Shown: one piece after another, positions 6,359 through 41,265 of the stretch
Position numbering within the stretch: the first letter of the stretch is position 1
Layout of the letters: every line of letters begins with the position of its first letter
NCBI GenBank assembly: GCA_900539605.1
Contig: UQCS01000001.1
Location: 17,169 to 81,168 of the forward strand
Origin: an uncultured Azospirillum sp.
GTDB lineage: Bacteria; Pseudomonadota; Alphaproteobacteria; RF32; CAG-239
Direction of reading: 5' to 3'
Length of the DNA stretch: 64,000 nucleotides
The notes under the pieces: generated by a model
What the model was told of the DNA's origin: nothing
Databases searched by the model: none
The model's input: the letters and a program-made list of their open reading frames with translations, nothing else
Made by a program: the position numbers and the translations under genes

Positions 6359-6457
6359 TACAAAAACCTATTTTCACTTGATTTTTACAGACGGCATGTT
6401 AAACAATAAAATAGAATTTACAAGCATAAACCGTATTAACAACTATGGATTAAACCA

Positions 6458-7072
6458 ATGATTAAAAATATTCTTTCTATGTTCTGCGCTTTGGCCCTGA
6501 TTTCTACGCTTGCCGCCTGCGCTTCTGACAATGAGGCGGTTCCTCAGAAATACAACGAACCACGTTTTAACAGCGACGGCATTGTCAACCTGAAAGTCAA
6601 CAAAGTAGAAGTCATTTCCGAATTCACGCCTTCTTTTACCCGCCCCAACGTTGAACATCTGTTTCCGGTTTCGATCGAAAAAACAGCCAAACTTTGGGCA
6701 AACGACCGGTTGAAAGCAGTTGATTTCTCTTCTGACAAACAGGCTACCTTCGTTATTAAAGACGCCAGCGTAACCGAAGAAGTGGTTAAATCCGACAAAC
6801 TGTTCGAAAAAGACAGTCTCAAATACCGCGCCAAACTGTCGGTGGTTTTGAGAGTCAACGACCCTTACAAATTCTCCAGCGCCGAAACTTCGCTGGAAGC
6901 ATGGCGCGAGCTCACCATTCCGGTTGACACTTCCATTGAAGACAAGGAAAGATACTGGAACAACATGGTTGAAAAACTGTTTGAAGAGTTCAACGCCCGC
7001 ATGCAGATGAATATCAACAAATATCTCAACATGTATATTGAGAATTCTCAGTATATTCAAGACTACGAATAA
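6458..7072 (+). CDS. Lipoprotein, function unknown
   Basis: Signal peptide with lipobox LSTLAAC; hydrophilic mature protein. The antisense 205-aa ORF is F-rich and looks like an artefact. Confidence 0.7.
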   Translation: MIKNILSMFCALALISTLAACASDNEAVPQKYNEPRFNSDGIVNLKVNKVEVISEFTPSFTRPNVEHLFPVSIEKTAKLWANDRLKAVDFSSDKQATFVIKDASVTEEVVKSDKLFEKDSLKYRAKLSVVLRVNDPYKFSSAETSLEAWRELTIPVDTSIEDKERYWNNMVEKLFEEFNARMQMNINKYLNMYIENSQYIQDYE

Positions 7073-7095
7073 TCAGTCAATTGTTTTGCGGTCAA

Positions 7096-7130
7096 TAAAA
7101 CCCGGTTCCTAGACCGGGTTTTATTTTTGC
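7096..7130 (+). terminator. Rho-independent terminator after lipoprotein gene
   Basis: aaaacccggttcctagaccgggtttt hairpin followed by a T-run. Confidence 0.55.
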
Positions 7131-7335
7131 GGCTCTGCAATGATCAAACATCTCCAGGACCTAAAAAAACGATGACTTCCCGGCACGGAAAAAAATTCCT
7201 GCGAACTTAGGATCTCGGATCAACGGCAAAGCAGGCATTTTGACCATACGCGGCAGCAGAAAACACCGAAAAATCCTGTAAACCACAGGCAATAAAAAAG
7301 ACCGTAATCATACGGCCTTTTTTCGTTAAAATTAA

Positions 7336-7752
7336 TCAGTGCAAAACCGGAGCGGCACATCGGTGTCCGGCATCAAATTGCAATACCGGCAAACGGATAC
7401 TTTCGGCAATTTTGGCAGCACCTTTCAAAATTTTGCAACTGCCATAGAAAACAGCGTGGGCAGCCTTAAGCGGCGCGGTAGCACTGAATTCAAAATATTC
7501 ACCCGGTTCCAACTCGGGGATCTCGCCGCTGAAACCTTCGGAGTCATCGCAAAAACAACGACCGCTGTCGTCGGTAATATTCCAATTTTTACCAAGCAGA
7601 GTAATCTTCTGGTCCGAATTGTTTTCAATACAGAAGTAATATCCCCATAAAAACTCTTGTCCGGCATGATGAGACGCCTCCACCAGTTCCGACCCGGCGG
7701 TAATCGTCACGTCACCATCTTCGGTTACAATCATCTCCTGACTTGAATCCAT
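7336..7752 (-). CDS. apaG: ApaG (DUF525) protein
   Basis: GYYFCIENNSDQKITLLGKNWNITDDSGR matches the ApaG core. Confidence 0.8.
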   Translation of the reverse strand: MDSSQEMIVTEDGDVTITAGSELVEASHHAGQEFLWGYYFCIENNSDQKITLLGKNWNITDDSGRCFCDDSEGFSGEIPELEPGEYFEFSATAPLKAAHAVFYGSCKILKGAAKIAESIRLPVLQFDAGHRCAAPVLH

Positions 7753-21679: not shown

Positions 21680-22015
21680 TTATGCCAACGCCTGCAGGTT
21701 TTTAACCACACGGACCGGAACTTTGTATTCGCGGGCCACATCGTCATTTTCAATTTCGACCATCAACACTTCGTTAACCGATTTCAGCGGCATCCGTGCT
21801 TCGGCAGCAATAGAATTCAGCATGAAAGCGCTTTCGCGGCTGCGATATAACAGGGCCTGTTCGCCGCCGTCATAGACCAGACGCGGATTTTCCGGGCCTC
21901 CCTCGCGGTATTCGATAATGATCAGTATCTCTCCGGCAGCATTCTGCAGCATATCATAACGTCCGGCCTGCTGTGAATTCTTACTATCTGACATATCCCA
22001 AATCCTTAAAAACAA
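21680..22015 (-). CDS. Hypothetical protein (111 aa)
   Basis: Host-like GC; no recognisable motif; lies where nuoK would be expected but is not NuoK-like. Confidence 0.45.
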   Translation of the reverse strand: MFLRIWDMSDSKNSQQAGRYDMLQNAAGEILIIIEYREGGPENPRLVYDGGEQALLYRSRESAFMLNSIAAEARMPLKSVNEVLMVEIENDDVAREYKVPVRVVKNLQALA

Positions 22016-22155
22016 AGTTTAATAATCAAATTTGAAATGGATGATAACATACAATTTTTAACAAATAAACTATTTTTTACAATTTTTAATTTTTTTGAAT
22101 TTTTTTTATTGACTAACTGTTTTTTATCTATTATACCTTGCTTCGTTATTGATGA

Positions 22156-22231
22156 GGGCCCGTAGCTCAGTCGGTAGAGCATTTGACTTTTAATCAAAGG
22201 GTCATGGGTTCGAATCCCGTCGGGCTCACCA
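22156..22231 (+). tRNA. tRNA-Lys (anticodon UUU), CCA encoded
   Basis: Cloverleaf checked by hand: acceptor GGGCCCG/CGGGCTC, D-arm agctcagtcggtagagc, anticodon stem tttga/tcaaa with loop cTTTTaa, T-loop TTCGAAT, discriminator A, then CCA. Confidence 0.9.
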
Positions 22232-22240
22232 ATTAGTACT

Positions 22241-22277
22241 CGGGTTAGATTTTCAGGTCTAACCCGTTGTTTTTTAT
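22241..22277 (+). terminator. Rho-independent terminator of tRNA-Lys
   Basis: cgggttaga...tctaacccg hairpin followed by ttgttttttat. Confidence 0.65.
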
Positions 22278-22284
22278 CTGAAAA

Positions 22285-22971
22285 TTGGAGTTCTAATAAA
22301 TCCATATTATCATTTCCGGCTGTTTGGTTAGAAAGTTTTGCATATCCTTTAATTTCCAATGGTTTCACGAGTTCTAACAGGTTCTGATTGGTTCTCTTAA
22401 CATTTTTCTCTTCAAACAACTCAAATGGGAAGTTTAGTTCATAGGTTAGCTTACCTTCAGTGAGCCATAAGTTCTTGAAAACAAACTTTAATAAGAACCT
22501 TTTAAGTTCTATATTTTGAGAACGGGAGAACAAATATCCAGATTCTGTTGCAATGTCTAAAAGTTCTAAAAGAGTATTATTGAAGCTTTCATCTGCTTTT
22601 TCGTGAGCAAGAATCTTATCTTTTACTCTGTTTACCTTTAACTGAAGCTCGTTTCGTTTGGCATCAAATGTTTCTCTGTCAAGTTCGCCATCAAGCCTTA
22701 AATCAAACAAGTGGTCAAGTTTGTCCTTTAAGTTTTTTTGTTCTTTTTTTAGTTTTACAACAGCATCTTTGCAGTATTTTCGTTCATTGGCTTTGGCTTT
22801 TTTAAGTTCTTCTTTTAATTCTGCCACAATATTATCCGGCAAATGAATGCGGTTGAGGATAGATGCCAAGTCATTTAAGATGTTTTGTTCAGACACATAT
22901 TGTCTTGAACCATCGGCATGATAGCAAAAAATATAGATATATCTGTTTTTCTTAATTTCACAGATGCACAT
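22285..22971 (-). pseudogene. Large serine recombinase, C-terminal (zinc-ribbon plus coiled-coil) fragment lacking the catalytic domain
   Basis: Begins in the Cys cluster (RCG...MCICEI...YIFCYH) with an in-frame stop 6 codons upstream. Coiled-coil LFDLRLDGELDRETFDAKRNEL resembles the LSR motif L.DLY.DG.I....F. The track ORF continues antisense through the terminator and tRNA (GEPDGIRTHDP), which is not coding. Confidence 0.45.
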
Positions 22972-31117: not shown

Positions 31118-31288
31118 GGGTTCGCACCAAGTTCGCACCGAATTTGCACTAAATCCATATATTACAAGGTTTTGCGCGAATATTATTATAAAAAAGACAG
31201 GTTCGCACCTAATTCCGCTCAATCCCTTGTTTTGCATGCGATACAACGGAATTTAACCTATAACAACACAGGTTCGCAGTTGCGAACC
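31118..31288. repeat. Iteron-like repeats GGTTCGCAC(C) x4, last copy palindromic (GGTTCGCAgtTGCGAACC)
   Basis: Copies at 31118, 31131, 31199 and 31271-31288, immediately upstream of the C5-MTase start. Confidence 0.6.
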
Positions 31289-31315
31289 TCTTTTTTATGT
31301 AAGGAAGCAAGAATT

Positions 31316-32407
31316 GTGGATATACCTACCTGCCGAGTATTATCACTCTGTTCCGAGGTCGGAGGCCTTAACCTTGGACTTAAACTCGCAATGCCAACTA
31401 GCCGAACAGTCGCTTATATGGAGATCGAAGCCTATGCGTGCGAAATTCTGGTTAAACGCATGCAAGAAAAAATCTTGGATCCGGCACCTCTTTGGTCAGA
31501 TATCAAATCCTTCGATGGCAAACCATGGCGTGGAAAAGTGGATCTCATCACTGGCGGATATCCATGCCAGCCGTTTTCAGTTGCAGGAAAGAAACTCGGA
31601 GACAAAGACCCCAGACATCTCTGGCCCCACGTGCGAAGAATTGTTTCCGAAATTGAGCCAGCTCTCTGTTTCTTTGAAAATGTCGGAGGACATCTACAGC
31701 TGGGCTTTGAACAAGTCCACAATGACCTACAAAGACTGGGTTATAAAGTTAAGGCAGGCTTGTTCTCTGCGGAAGAAGTCGGTGCTCCGCATCGCCGTGA
31801 GCGCCTCTTTATCTTGGCCTACCGTAATGACGGCAGATGCAACAGTAGCGGAAACGATAACACCGAACGACAAGTATGTCCAAACCAAGAACGGTACTCT
31901 GCGCCGATACATCAAGAGCGGACACAACTGCAGTCTGGGATTAGCGAGAACGGCACGTCTCTGGCCGACGGTTTTGGTATCGGAAGCCAATGGCGCATCT
32001 CTCAAAAAAGTTCAGACCGGATATTCTCGGAGCCGTCTAAAAGAGGAAGTTTTGTTGTGGAAACAGCCGTTGAGATGGCGGACACCGAATGCCTCGGATG
32101 CCGAAGGCGGCGTGATGGAAATCAGAACGGAAACCTCTGCCTGGATCAAACTTCGCGATCATTCCGTACATGTAGCAAATTGCCTCTTTGGCCCCCCAGA
32201 CCAAATGACTTTGATGACTGGCGAAATATCCCGGAGAACCTTAAACCCGCGGTTTACCGAATGGCTGATGGGCTGGCCGACCGGGTGGACAGAGTTAGAG
32301 CCTGCGGCAACGGCGTGGTGCCTCTGGTGGCGGCGTATGCGTTTACAGTTCTTACGTCTAACCTTGAATTTACAACAACAGGTATCTTAAATGAACGAGA
32401 AAGTTAA
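31316..32407 (+). CDS. Phage-type DNA (cytosine-5)-methyltransferase; conserved motifs split between two overlapping open frames (possible frameshifts)
   Basis: Frame +2: motif I LSLCSEVGGLNLGL, IV GGYPCQPFS, VI ENV, VIII VGAPHRRERLFILA, X GNGVVPLVAAYA. Frame +0: WPTV / WRTPNASDAEGG and NPRFTEWLMGWPTGWT. RBS AAGGAAG 8 nt before GTG 31316. Confidence 0.7.
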   Translation: MDIPTCRVLSLCSEVGGLNLGLKLAMPTSRTVAYMEIEAYACEILVKRMQEKILDPAPLWSDIKSFDGKPWRGKVDLITGGYPCQPFSVAGKKLGDKDPRHLWPHVRRIVSEIEPALCFFENVGGHLQLGFEQVHNDLQRLGYKVKAGLFSAEEVGAPHRRERLFILAYRNDGRCNSSGNDNTERQVCPNQERYSAPIHQERTQLQSGISENGTSLADGFGIGSQWRISQKSSDRIFSEPSKRGSFVVETAVEMADTECLGCRRRRDGNQNGNLCLDQTSRSFRTCSKLPLWPPRPNDFDDWRNIPENLKPAVYRMADGLADRVDRVRACGNGVVPLVAAYAFTVLTSNLEFTTTGILNERES

Positions 32408-33722
32408 ATTAAAAGTTGAATATGTAAAGCTGGAAGAACTCATTCCTTTCGAGTTGAATGCCAGAACACACTCTAAGGAACAGGTCGGACAGATTGTCAA
32501 TTCCATCGGAGAGTTTGACTTCGTCAATCCTATTCTGGTCGGCGTCGACAATATGATTATTGCCGGTCATGGGCGCTTGTTGGCAGCGAAAAAAGCTGGA
32601 TTGGAAACGGTTCCGATCATCCGGCTCCCGCATCTTGACTATAACCAGTGCATGGCTTTGTCTCTGGCTGATAATAAAATTGCCGAAAATGCTGGTTGGG
32701 ATGAAGATAAAATCGTTGAAATTCTCGGAAAACTTGAGGATGCACATTTCAACATTGATATTTTGGGCTTTTCCAACAAAGAGCTTGAAAATTACCGTGA
32801 TGAATTTGAAACCAACGATGAAGACCTCGAGTTTGAAAACGAAGTCCCTGATTTTGTGGAAAAACCGGTTGCCAGGCGCGGCGATGTTTGGATTTTAGGC
32901 GACCACCGATTGTTATGCGGCGACGCAACAAGTCAGACAGATGTTGAAAAGGTTATGGACGGCGAAAAAGCCCAGATGGTTTTCACCGATCCGCTGTATA
33001 ATGTGAATTACGGCAATGCTTTGCGAGACAAACTGGCAGGAAAGGAAGGCGAGCGTTCAATTCTAAACGACAATCTTGGTGAGGGTTTCCCTGCTTTTCT
33101 GTATGATTTCTGCTGTAATATCTTAGAAGTCAATGTTGGTTCCTTTTATATTTGTATGGGCGGGTCGGAGTTGCATACTCTATACCAAGCCTTTACGGCT
33201 GCGGGCGGCAAATGGGAAGCCTACATCGTCTGGGTTAAAGACAAATTCACGCTTTCACGTTCCAAGCATCAACATCAGCACGAATGGATTTTGTTCGGCA
33301 ATCCTTACGAAGAACAGCATGAAGAAATCCTGTTGGGTGCGAAACCCGGTACGGCTCCGGCTTGCTATGGCGGACGCAACCAAACAGATGTCTGGGAATT
33401 TCCCCGACCGCAGAAAAGCGCACTGCATCCAACAATGAAGCCTATCGCACTGGTTGAAAGAGCCATCCGCAATTCCAGCAGGGTAACAGATATTGTCTTG
33501 GATACCTTCGGTGGCAGCGGTTCAACGCTGATTGCCTGTGAAAAAAGTGGCCGGCGCTGCCGGATGATTGAACTCGATGAGAAATATGTCGATGTTATTA
33601 TTAAACGCTGGGAGGAATATTCCCGAAAAAAAGCCGTTCATGAACAAACCGGCAAAAGTTATGATGCCCTCAAAATTGAAAGAGAAAAGGAAGAAACACT
33701 CACAGAAAAAGCTCCGAAATAA
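32391..33722 (+). CDS. ParB-like nuclease domain fused to N6A/N4C DNA methyltransferase
   Basis: N-terminal ParB domain (NPILVGVDNMIIAGHGRLLAAKKAG); MTase motif IV-like TDPLYN; motif I FGGSGSTLIACEKSGRRCRMIELDEKY. Confidence 0.85.
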   Translation: MNEKVKLKVEYVKLEELIPFELNARTHSKEQVGQIVNSIGEFDFVNPILVGVDNMIIAGHGRLLAAKKAGLETVPIIRLPHLDYNQCMALSLADNKIAENAGWDEDKIVEILGKLEDAHFNIDILGFSNKELENYRDEFETNDEDLEFENEVPDFVEKPVARRGDVWILGDHRLLCGDATSQTDVEKVMDGEKAQMVFTDPLYNVNYGNALRDKLAGKEGERSILNDNLGEGFPAFLYDFCCNILEVNVGSFYICMGGSELHTLYQAFTAAGGKWEAYIVWVKDKFTLSRSKHQHQHEWILFGNPYEEQHEEILLGAKPGTAPACYGGRNQTDVWEFPRPQKSALHPTMKPIALVERAIRNSSRVTDIVLDTFGGSGSTLIACEKSGRRCRMIELDEKYVDVIIKRWEEYSRKKAVHEQTGKSYDALKIEREKEETLTEKAPK

Positions 33723-33746
33723 TATGGAGCCTTACTTTTTTACAGG

Positions 33747-34559
33747 ATGACAATGAAATTCTTGGCTTGGTTTAGTTGTGGGGTTACGTCAGCAGTTACC
33801 TGTAAACTGGCGGTTGATAAATACGGCGATGATGTCGATATCTGGTATATTGAAACCGGTGCGGCACATCCAGACAATCACCGATTTATTGAAGATTGCG
33901 AAAACTGGTATGGCAGAAAAATTCTGACGGCTCAACATTCTAAATTTAAGAATCCTTTGGAAATTGCTGCCGTTGAAGTTTTTAATACACCGTGGGGTGC
34001 CCCCTGCACTAAATATTTAAAGAAGGAAGTCCGCCAAAGAATCGAAAAAGATTACTCTGAACCAATCCACATATTTGGCTTTGAGTATAATAAAAAAGAA
34101 ATTAACCGGGCCTTTCGGTGGAAGCAGCAGAATTCCTCAAGAGTTTATTTCCCGCTTATTGAACAAGGGTGGAACAAACGGCGTTGTCTGCAGGAGCTTT
34201 TGCTTAACAAGATCGAAATCCCTGCCATGTACCTGCTCGGATACAATAACAACAACTGTATCGGCTGTTTTAAAGGTGGCAAAGGGTACTGGAACAAAAT
34301 ACGGACAGATTTCCCGGACATTTTCAGACAAACTGCAGAGTTGGAACTAAAAACAAAACATACCTGCCTCAAAGATCGTGGCAAACAACTCTATCTGGCT
34401 GAATTAGAACCAGATGCAGGTAAACACCAAAACATTGACATTCCCGAATGCGGAATATTTTGTGAGCTTGAAATGGCCGGATTGCCAATCAAAGATATTA
34501 ACGAAATTTTAGAATTCATAAAATTTAACCCGGAAAAACTAATGAATACAGCAAAATAA
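33747..34559 (+). CDS. PAPS-reductase-like PP-loop family protein (phage-type)
   Basis: N-terminal AWFSCGVTSAV resembles a PP-loop; C-terminal CIGCF Cys pair; commonly next to ParB-MTase in prophages. Confidence 0.55.
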   Translation: MTMKFLAWFSCGVTSAVTCKLAVDKYGDDVDIWYIETGAAHPDNHRFIEDCENWYGRKILTAQHSKFKNPLEIAAVEVFNTPWGAPCTKYLKKEVRQRIEKDYSEPIHIFGFEYNKKEINRAFRWKQQNSSRVYFPLIEQGWNKRRCLQELLLNKIEIPAMYLLGYNNNNCIGCFKGGKGYWNKIRTDFPDIFRQTAELELKTKHTCLKDRGKQLYLAELEPDAGKHQNIDIPECGIFCELEMAGLPIKDINEILEFIKFNPEKLMNTAK

Positions 34560-39621: not shown

Positions 39622-41265
39622 ATGTCAGATAAATTGCAAAAATTAGAGCTGGTATGGCCGGGAAAGAATGAGCATGTTGACGTCGAACCGCGGATTTTAA
39701 TTGAGGATGCGGAAAAATCATACTCGGCGAATTCTAAGATTCAGGAAAAAATAAACCGGCAGCTTTTTGAGCAAGAACCGGAAATTGCTCCGACTTTTGA
39801 CAACATGCTTATCCACGGTGATAATTTATTGGCATTAAAAGCTCTGGAAGCCAAGTATTCAGGCCAAATTAAATGTATTTATATAGATCCGCCATATAAT
39901 ACAGGTAATGCTTTTGAACATTATGATGATGGATATGAGCATTCTATTTGGCTTTCGTTAATGCGAGAGCGATTGGAAATTTTGAAAAATCTATTGGCCG
40001 ATGATGGAAGTATTTGGATATCATTAGATGATAATGAGCAAGCCTATTGCAAGGTGCTTTGTGATGAAATATTTGGTAGGAAAAACTTTGTCTGTAATGT
40101 TATTTGGCAAAAAAAATACTCTCCGGCTAATGATGCAAAATGGTTATCTGACAATCACGATTTTGTTATTGTTTATGCGAAAAATAAAATGATATGGCGC
40201 CCCAATTTGCTACCGAGAACGAATGAACAAAATAAATATTATAAGTACGATGATAATGATGGACGAGGTAAGTGGCGTTCTGATAATGTATTAGTAAAAA
40301 CATTTTCGAAAACAGGAGTTTTTGCTATTGTTAATCCCAACACAGGGGTTGAGTATTATCCTCCAGAAGGAAGTTGTTATAGATTTAATGCAGAAACAGC
40401 AAAAAGAATGTTACAAGAAAATCGTTTTTATTTTGGGAAAGATGGGAAAGGCGCCCCTCAATTGAAAAGATATTTATCGGAAGTTAAACAGGGTATGACT
40501 CCTTTAACTATTTGGTCATACGAAGAAGTAGGGCATAATCAAGATGCAAAATTGGAAGTTAAACAATTTAACCCTACTGATATTTTTGCCACTCCCAAAC
40601 CAGAAAGGCTCCTTTACCGTATTTTAACTTTAGCCACTAAACCCGGCGATTTAGTCCTTGATAGTTTTTTAGGCTCAGGTACAACAGCTGCGGTCGCTCA
40701 TAAAATGGGGCGGCGCTGGATTGGGATTGAGATGGGAGACCACATTTATTCCCACTGTTTGCCGCGACTGAAGAAAGTTATTGATTGTGAAGATGCCGGT
40801 GGTATCACGAAATCAGTTAAATGGCAGGGCGGCGGCGGTTTTAAATTCTATGAACTTGGCTCTACCCTGATTGTAACGGATAAACATGGGCGGCAGGTTA
40901 TTTCGGACAAATATAATCCGGAAATGTTGGCTGAAGCTATGTGCAAGCTGATGGGATACAAGTACGCTCCAGATAAGGAAACTTACTGGAAACAAGGTTA
41001 TTCCAGCGAAAAGAGTTTTATTTTCACAACAACGATGAATGTTGAGGAACAGTTGCTGGCAGAGATGTCTCAAGCCCTAGGGGACAGCAACCTGCTGATC
41101 TGCTGCGGCGCTTTCACCGGTAACAAAACGGCTTATGACAATATTACCATTAAGAAGATCCCTCAGGCAATTCTTAAGAAATGCCAATGGGGCTCTGCCG
41201 GTTATCCGTTACCAATTCGGGAAGATTTTTCTGATGAAGATTTTGAATTTGAGGATGAAGAATAG
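39622..41265 (+). CDS. Type III R-M Mod subunit (N6-adenine methyltransferase, beta class)
   Basis: N-terminal LELVWPGK; IHGDNLLALKAL; motif IV CIYIDPPYNTG; downstream FLGSGTT (AdoMet binding). Confidence 0.85.
   Translation: MSDKLQKLELVWPGKNEHVDVEPRILIEDAEKSYSANSKIQEKINRQLFEQEPEIAPTFDNMLIHGDNLLALKALEAKYSGQIKCIYIDPPYNTGNAFEHYDDGYEHSIWLSLMRERLEILKNLLADDGSIWISLDDNEQAYCKVLCDEIFGRKNFVCNVIWQKKYSPANDAKWLSDNHDFVIVYAKNKMIWRPNLLPRTNEQNKYYKYDDNDGRGKWRSDNVLVKTFSKTGVFAIVNPNTGVEYYPPEGSCYRFNAETAKRMLQENRFYFGKDGKGAPQLKRYLSEVKQGMTPLTIWSYEEVGHNQDAKLEVKQFNPTDIFATPKPERLLYRILTLATKPGDLVLDSFLGSGTTAAVAHKMGRRWIGIEMGDHIYSHCLPRLKKVIDCEDAGGITKSVKWQGGGGFKFYELGSTLIVTDKHGRQVISDKYNPEMLAEAMCKLMGYKYAPDKETYWKQGYSSEKSFIFTTTMNVEEQLLAEMSQALGDSNLLICCGAFTGNKTAYDNITIKKIPQAILKKCQWGSAGYPLPIREDFSDEDFEFEDEE

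Follow-up and report, generated by a model that had tools for sequence, protein, structure and literature searches.

Two fully overlapping same-strand reading frames that probably encode the halves of one phage cytosine methylase

The window analyzed here is a stretch of 64,000 nucleotides (nt) from contig UQCS01000001.1 of an uncultured Azospirillum sp. (GCA_900539605.1), and it contains a C5-cytosine methylase locus in which two long reading frames, referred to below as A and B, cover the same DNA. We consider it likely that the locus represents two genuine overlapping genes on the same strand, from whose adjacent starts two polypeptides, alpha (from A) and beta (from B), would be made as the halves of one phage cytosine methylase; we infer that both proteins are produced and that they form a complex with DNA-methylating activity. 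With less assurance, though still leaning toward it, we extend this reading to a large and widespread group of phage and prophage C5 methylases, each of which would be a fully overlapping same-strand pair of more than 1 kb with paired starts and interleaved subunit segments. A preliminary description of the locus had offered a dual-coding gene as one of several explanations, and this is the one that the comparative evidence favors.

Both frames lie on the plus strand, and the open reading frame (ORF) listing and the raw sequence place B in the +1 frame of A. Frame A (coordinate modulo 3 = 2) is open from 31172 up to its stop codon at 32405-32407 and, with GTG at 31316 as the likely start, gene A (31316-32407, plus strand) encodes 363 amino acids (aa), comprising a C5-cytosine methylase large domain with motifs I to VIII, a disordered linker, a WPPxP..W patch, and motif X. 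Frame B (modulo 3 = 0) extends from TTG at 31314 to the stop codon at 32388-32390, and gene B (31314-32390, plus strand) thus encodes 358 aa: an N terminus reading MWIYLP, an overprinted N-terminal part, a target-recognition-like middle, a motif IX-like element (LNPRFTEWLMGWPTGWT), and a C-terminal helix. The ORF listing, together with a motif check, confirmed the earlier observation of two overlapping frames of more than 1 kb with methylase motifs in both. In A, these are motif I (31340-31366), GYPCQPFS (31556-31579), FFENV (31670-31684), GAPHRRERLFILA of motif VIII (31781-31819), and GNGVVP of motif X (32306-32323), such that the catalytic motifs I (FxGxGG), IV (PCQ), VI (ENV), VIII (QxRxR), and X (GNxV) are all found within the frame A chain. 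The B motifs are SWPTVMTADATV (31812-31847), WRTPNASDAEGG (32076-32111), and LNPRFTEWLMGWPTGWT (32241-32291). At codon 14 of A (31355-31357), motif I reads CSEVGG in the window, compared to CSGVGG in 50/50 aligned homologues, including relatives that are more than 90% identical; the variant represents a single G-to-A change at a near-invariant glycine of the S-adenosylmethionine (AdoMet) loop, and the base might be a sequence error.

The methylase identity of A is supported by its family matches and its predicted fold. Pfam profile PF00145 matched frame A with an E value of 6e-38 and 131.5 bits (cut-off 22), with residues 7-209 aligned to positions 2-193 only of the 324 in the profile; TIGR00675 scored 96.8 bits, slightly below its cut-off of 100.65, and phrog_363 from PHROGs matched A over its full length. 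In an AlphaFold model of A, built on a 51-sequence alignment, residues 1-173 reached predicted local distance difference test (pLDDT) values of 76-95 and a confident helix covered motif X (pLDDT 76-89), while residues 174-290 stayed below 50 and had no secondary structure. Foldseek matched the confident part to M.HhaI and M.HaeIII (probability 1.0, ~175 aligned columns, root mean square deviation of 2.5-3 Å). A confident, M.HhaI-like part followed by a low-confidence stretch at residues 174-290 describes a large domain with a disordered linker at the position of the target-recognition domain. This linker (31835-32185, plus strand; ~117 aa) is rich in S, R, G, Q, and N, unconserved, and variable in length among homologues, yet stop-free; its non-protein-like character had been recognized in the preliminary description, which put its length at 200 aa, well above what we find. 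A thus resembles M.HhaI and M.HaeIII (both PF00145) in the sequence and predicted fold of its large domain, in its catalytic PCQ and ENV, and in motif X. Those enzymes, however, have their target-recognition domain and motif IX in frame with the other motifs, in the interval from motif VIII to motif X that only the linker fills in A; no target-recognition domain or motif IX was found there in the A chain, and the motif IX-like element is that of frame B.

Frame B, in turn, was matched by phrog_1008 (E = 2.9e-18; residues 72-328 on positions 34-281 of 329), and B-type relatives P0132, P0202, and P0259 matched the same profile with E values of 1e-32 to 1e-38. Both phrog_363 and phrog_1008 are labeled DNA methyltransferase in PHROGs. 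Matches of frame B to capsid VP1 (E about 0.02) were judged to be due to chance. Compared to M.HhaI, B carries a motif that resembles C5-methylase motif IX (R.L.P...W/RLMGxP). When an A-B-A chimera was aligned to PF00145, the alignment extended as far as this motif IX-like element and reached position 294 of 324, but the score was 126.8 bits, compared to 131.5 bits for A; an extension without gain in score is no more than suggestive of a likeness to motif IX. Short motif IX/X peptides yielded nothing significant among PDB sequences, the best relevant match being the prophage methylase 3g7u (E = 0.55).

Both frames were tested for selection against stop codons by synonymous-codon permutation, in which protein and codon usage are held constant. 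In the first 165 A codons of the window, B has 0 stops where 4.3 are expected (P = 0.004), and permutation of the B codons showed that A has 0 stops in the middle where 4.7 are expected (P = 0.002). The same held for B across the A catalytic domain in the window, L004, L079, L063, and L077 (0 stops versus 3-4 expected; P = 0.000-0.012) and for A across the B-conserved middle in the window, L004, L079, L073, and L001 (0 versus 3-6; P = 0.001-0.011). No stop depletion was seen for the third frame in either permutation test; in the gene core of the window, it contains 26 stops, compared to zero in A and in B. Double openness next to such a third frame is far beyond chance, in keeping with the expectation voiced when the frames were first noticed, and the stop statistics indicate that selection is holding both frames open over the whole gene.

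Codon alignments of 16 non-redundant members (<80% nucleotide identity) revealed which frame is constrained where. From 31316 to 31819 (A codons 1-168, with motifs I, IV [PCQ], VI [ENV], and VIII), the third position of A is the most variable (0.45-0.67 versus 0.2-0.3), and B is only kept stop-free. From 31812 to 32111, a candidate target-recognition region containing SWPTVMTADATV, the beta module PNDKYVQTKNGTLRRYIKSGHNCSLGLARTARLWPTV, and WRTPNASDAEGG, it is the third position of B that varies most; amino acid diversity is lower in B than in A, and conserved columns appear in the B alignments. Selection on B extends, in weaker form, over A codons ~169-290, where A amino acid diversity is 0.73-0.89. 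Per-codon diversity then identifies an A-selected patch, WPPRPNDFDDW (32189-32221, A codons 292-302), in which P294, P296, and W302 are invariant, followed by the B-selected motif IX-like element (32241-32291; B residues 310-326, A codons 309-325) with the consensus LNPxFxEWLMGxPxGWT. At eleven positions of that element (L, N, P, E, L, M, G, P, G, W, and T), B diversity is 0.00-0.12, compared to an A diversity of 0.5-0.9. Finally, the motif X region RVRACGNGVVPLVAAYAF..L (32291-32353, A codons 326-346) is A selected, with A diversity near 0 and a variable A third position. All of these segments are on the plus strand. Plots of the guanine-plus-cytosine (GC) content at third codon positions in 20 high-GC relatives were A-like to about nt 500-520 of the gene and B-like thereafter. 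Along the gene, the patches therefore alternate A, B, A, B, A, and purifying selection, as read from codon variation, is both frame specific and interleaved. The alternation of conserved methylase features between frames, as initially proposed, is borne out by this per-codon signature, and the switch points placed earlier near 31810 and 32290 fall within a few bases of the changes in selection, at about 31812-31820 and at 32291.

How common the arrangement is was assessed in 80 loci fetched from IMG/VR and 8 from bacterial genomes; stops in the gene core were counted in 72 related loci, and start sites were surveyed in 73. Searches with the frame A protein returned thousands of relatives, the full-length ones covering 97-100% of A in one frame down to ~45% identity. 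With the frame B middle as the query, proteins predicted independently by gene callers were found; an exhaustive HMMER search with B gave 2621 representative proteins at E ≤ 0.001, and a B profile search gave 1737, most of them covering 84-100% of B. An alignment of homologues to a single frame had been named in advance as a sign that the motifs in frame B were spurious. End-to-end homologues in A do exist but, separately, so do end-to-end homologues in B, and B is therefore not spurious, although homologues align wholly in A. The core was free of stops in 69/72 loci for A, in 69/72 for B, and in 0/72 for the third frame (mean, 9.1 stops). Double openness was also seen in low-GC members (49-53% GC), with 18-26 stops in the third frame. 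At locus L001, which encodes P0132 (29% identical to B) and stems from a high-GC phage-like contig, a 338-aa methylase with a near-identical start and stop is encoded one frame back. Essentially all of ~80 relatives, at 36-94% identity, share the two-frame layout, which marks it, at the level of sequence, as a family trait. Among its carriers are Synechococcus phage Yong-M2-251, an isolated phage (OM868082, record positions 6369-7508), an isolate of Acinetobacter calcoaceticus, and metagenome-assembled genomes of Pseudomonadota and Alphaproteobacteria with 82-91% identity to the window. Nucleotide searches of GenBank phages and of Escherichia coli genomes gave no match, and a protein search of plasmids gave two weak matches only.

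The starts of the two frames are as closely interlocked as their coding regions. In the window, a Shine-Dalgarno-like AAGGAAG, read from the sequence at 31301-31307, leaves 6 nt to the start of B and 8 nt to that of A, and the starts themselves overlap as TTGTG (31314-31318, plus strand), with TTG at 31314 in frame B and GTG at 31316 in frame A. The TTG is the earliest frame B start codon past the upstream B stop. In 69/73 loci, a start in frame B is followed by an M(x)W[LI]Y peptide, most commonly MTWLYLPP and, in the window, MWIYLP. Gene A starts exactly 4 nt before gene B (ATGnATG) in 62/73 loci and 2 nt after it (NTGTG, either GTGTG or TTGTG) in 6/73; the window has TTGTG, and L004, L063, and L007 have GTGTG. 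Nucleotide changes within this stretch leave the B peptide unaltered (Leu, for example, is encoded by CTT, CTC, or TTG), and beyond M(x)W[LI]Y[LIV]P no selection was detected in the N-terminal half of B other than for staying open. The peptide may have a function in the protein or act as a signal in the initiation region. In many high-GC relatives (e.g., L010, L018, and L020), the TGA of the upstream gene ends 1 nt before the adjacent starts (..TGAcATGcATG..), an arrangement that hints at termination-reinitiation coupling as a supply of ribosomes to both frames. Experiments in E. coli have demonstrated that AUGUG and GUGUG sites initiate translation in two frames (PMC9841429).

Put together, we propose that one ribosome-binding site would feed ribosomes to either TTG 31314 (B) or GTG 31316 (A). 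Alpha would then supply the catalytic large domain with motifs I to VIII, a disordered linker of which only openness is required, and a C-terminal module (the WPPxP..W patch and the motif X helix) that would complete the AdoMet-binding domain. Beta would start with the MxWLYxP peptide and an overprinted N-terminal stretch that likewise needs only to stay open, and would contribute the target-recognition-like region and the motif IX-like element LNPxFxEWLMGxPxGWT. Alpha and beta would assemble into one active methylase modifying phage DNA. In such a complex, the beta module and the LNPxFxEWLMGxP helix of B would be expected to sit on the large domain of A at the site held by the small domain in M.HhaI, while the A linker and the N terminus of B would be disordered.

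Several variant loci make sense for an enzyme assembled from separate chains. In L084 (29-1262), A is only 168 aa long, stopping 7 codons past the motif VIII strand, and B, starting 4 nt later, encodes 409 aa in which motif X joins the motif IX-like element and the recognition region. L055 (2944-4597) has 8 mid-gene stops in A, leaving a 193-aa ORF with motifs I to VIII and a second ORF of 87 aa that has a separate ATG and spans WPPxP to motif X; its B frame is intact (549 aa). Similarly, L059 has 14 mid-gene stops in A and a B frame that is stop-free over about 1.5 kb. Despite these stops, frame A retains a conserved motif X in both L055 and L059. L083 is of the window type in both A and B. 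In three B-type proteins, P0202 (500 aa), P0234, and P0280, recognition repeats, EWLMGxP, and an LGNxxVP resembling motif X share one frame, from which the catalytic domain is absent; by their sequences, they are probably encoded by further L084-type genes.

The preliminary description had concluded that the native protein appears to need two frameshifts, and a single polypeptide made by programmed shifting, with a +1 shift into B past motif VIII and a -1 shift back into A ahead of motif X to give a conventional single-chain methylase, is the alternative that fares best, unlikely as we consider it to be. The main selection blocks do run A, B, A; the A-B-A chimera does extend the PF00145 alignment; and L055 and L059, with frame A broken mid-gene, nonetheless conserve motif X in A. 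However, frameshifting leaves unaccounted for the selection for openness of B over the catalytic domain and of A in the middle, as well as the conserved B start and N-terminal peptide. Moreover, the A-selected WPPxP..W patch sits inside what would be the B segment, so that four shifts rather than two would be required, and the FILA that ends motif VIII in A shares its nucleotides with SWPT in B, which means that one chain cannot hold both. No conserved slippery heptamer, in-frame stop, or rare codon was found at either boundary in the 16 aligned members, the motif X piece of L055 has its own ATG, and the chimera's Pfam score does not increase. No such methylase is mentioned in the review of frameshifting by Atkins et al.

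Database proteins that switch from A to B do exist (P0105, P0014, and P0015), and their contigs each carry one uncompensated 1-nt deletion relative to the window. In L085, GG has become G at window position 31803, fusing A to B; in L086, a run of six adenines (window 32004-32009, plus strand) is reduced to five, with the same effect. Both deletions give 357-aa fusion proteins ending at the B stop, and they show that, with both frames open, loss of 1 nt yields a full-length fusion and not a truncation. Neither deletion is present in the window, L002, L003, or L087, and the A-B junctions of fusion proteins in other lineages are at differing places. The fusion clusters are small (13 members for P0105, 14 for P0336, and 3 each for P0014 and P0015) compared to the normal form (P0001, 446 members). 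From these sequences, the fusions look like scattered mutations or assembly errors and not like a programmed event. The A6 run was set aside as a slippage site, being outside the family-wide pattern and its variant a plain 1-nt deletion.

A further alternative, to which we give slightly less weight still, holds that A alone is a working methylase and that B is an overprinted gene with an unrelated job, for example as a regulator or an anti-defense protein. It draws on the absence from B of a Pfam or NCBIfam domain and of a compact AlphaFold fold. The points that weigh against our own proposal of two halves of one enzyme overlap with these. Frame B has no significant match in Pfam or NCBIfam and none to the sequence of any solved structure in PDB. 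AlphaFold (76-sequence alignment) gave B a predicted template modeling score of 0.25 and no compact fold, the first 135 residues being of low confidence and the confident islands being confined to residues 139-162, 178-215 (a small beta module, pLDDT 84-88), 311-320 (the NPRFTEWLMG helix), and 331-357; such a model would be compatible with a subunit that is ordered solely as part of a complex, although it is no proof of one. The casting of B as the target-recognition subunit stems from motif resemblance and from the lack of a conserved candidate in A, and a 165-residue overprinted N-terminal extension is an odd cost for B to bear. Against our proposal, too, initiation would depend on two weak start codons (TTG and GTG), glutamate in place of glycine in motif I could impair catalysis by the window copy, and additional low-level frameshifting is possible. 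Still, an unrelated B is difficult to reconcile with an A chain that, between motifs VIII and X, offers only an unconserved, disordered linker and no target-recognition candidate. It also sits poorly with the motif IX resemblance of B, weakly backed by the chimera; with L084, whose motif X lies in frame B and so links B to the methylase; and with the classification of the B family as a DNA methyltransferase in PHROGs.

That the locus is a decaying pseudogene, or a normal single-frame gene broken by paired indel errors, as had also been considered initially, is highly improbable: 1-nt deletion variants do occur in the related contigs L085 and L086, and the window does have its unusual glutamate in motif I, but the frame structure is common to essentially all relatives (phage contigs, the Synechococcus phage, metagenome-assembled genomes, and the Acinetobacter isolate among them), both frames are under purifying selection, the close relatives L002, L003, and L087 share the frame structure of the window without indels, and no indel variants were found except lone 1-nt deletions, uncompensated, in other contigs.

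The two-chain organization proposed here has precedents. M.EcoHK31I of E. coli HK31 (recognizing YGGCCR) is a C5 methylase described as a natural heterodimer, with motifs I to VIII and X in alpha and motif IX in beta, which is encoded in another frame wholly inside the alpha gene, both chains being required for activity (PMC2836561; PMC3404938, citing Lee et al. 1995). The likeness, drawn from the layout as described there and not from sequence, is that a second frame overlaps the variable region of alpha and supplies motif IX. Beta of M.EcoHK31I, however, is ~176 aa long within a gene for a 309-aa alpha, whereas B in the window is as long as A (358 versus 363 aa), starts 2 nt before it at a ribosome-binding site common to both, and opens with an N-terminal peptide that is conserved. 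Furthermore, the accounts of M.EcoHK31I place the target-recognition domain in alpha, whereas the candidate in the window is in B and the corresponding alpha segment is disordered. By analogy, the window gene would share the M.EcoHK31I type of split, with the full-length overlap, the shared initiation, the conserved B N terminus, and the recognition-like region in B as the four differences. In M.AquI of Agmenellum quadruplicatum (CYCGRG), the larger chain is reported to carry motifs I to VIII and the smaller chain part of the variable region and motifs IX and X (PMC3404938). L084 divides its motifs alike, with I to VIII in A and the recognition region, IX, and X in B. The M.AquI genes presumably overlap only briefly, whereas in the window the second ORF reaches back over the whole first gene and motif X remains with alpha. 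As for initiation, the E. coli study of AUGUG and GUGUG sites (Kohl et al. 2022, PMC9841429) describes paired starts 2 nt apart that use one Shine-Dalgarno sequence to give products in two frames. The second products in that study are mostly short or unknown, compared to a conserved ORF of 358 codons here; most relatives have ATGnATG, with starts 4 nt apart, which the study does not address, and a first codon UUG, as in the TTGTG of the window, is not known to be among the sites it covers. Literature searches returned no description of this phage methylase family or of a full-length overlap in methylase genes.

Long overlapping genes on the same strand of bacteria and double-stranded DNA (dsDNA) phages are disputed and are dropped by annotation pipelines. 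The present locus offers, by its comparative data, an unusually clean case: selection keeps both frames open, and patches of purifying selection on one frame or the other take turns along ~1.07 kb, a pattern that persists among deeply diverged relatives. Pipelines call one frame, giving either a methylase from A and a hypothetical protein from B or the reverse, such that the enzyme would be misdescribed in many genomes, and a specificity predicted from frame A alone would be wrong. If our reading is correct, few same-strand dual-coding arrangements in bacteria or dsDNA phages would be as long or as widely conserved as this one, thousands of "hypothetical proteins" of the phrog_1008 type would be the missing recognition subunits of annotated methylases, and M.EcoHK31I would be the one characterized member of a big family and not a curiosity. 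The paired starts would provide a natural system for studies of how a single initiation site supplies two frames at a fixed ratio. Targeted methylation makes use of naturally split methylases as scaffolds (PMC2836561), of which this family would offer many more.

Turning to the surroundings of the locus, a terminator-like hairpin, AGGTTCGCA-GT-TGCGAACCT followed by a T-run (31270-31298, plus strand), is located just 5' of the methylase ribosome-binding site; it was identified in a promoter and terminator scan by consensus match only. A second copy of GGTTCGCA is present at 31200-31207. Downstream, a gene encoding a ParB_N domain and an N6/N4 DNA methylase (32391-33722, plus strand) overlaps the end of A by 17 nt, and its ATG directly adjoins the B stop (TAAATG), so that translational coupling with B seems likely from the junction. 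Rich in genes for DNA modification besides the C5 methylase, the regions 32391-34559 and 39622-41265 encode this ParB_N-N6/N4 fusion, a phosphoadenosine phosphosulfate reductase-like protein (phrog_424), and a further methylase (phrog_67). Elsewhere in the window are a ParA-like gene, a primase/helicase, and other helicases, and the whole has the appearance of a replication and modification region from a phage or phage-plasmid. Lastly, a tRNA-Lys (anticodon TTT; 22156-22231, plus strand) was found inside a 321-aa ORF on the minus strand (22006-22971), which may not be a real gene, at least over the part occupied by the tRNA.

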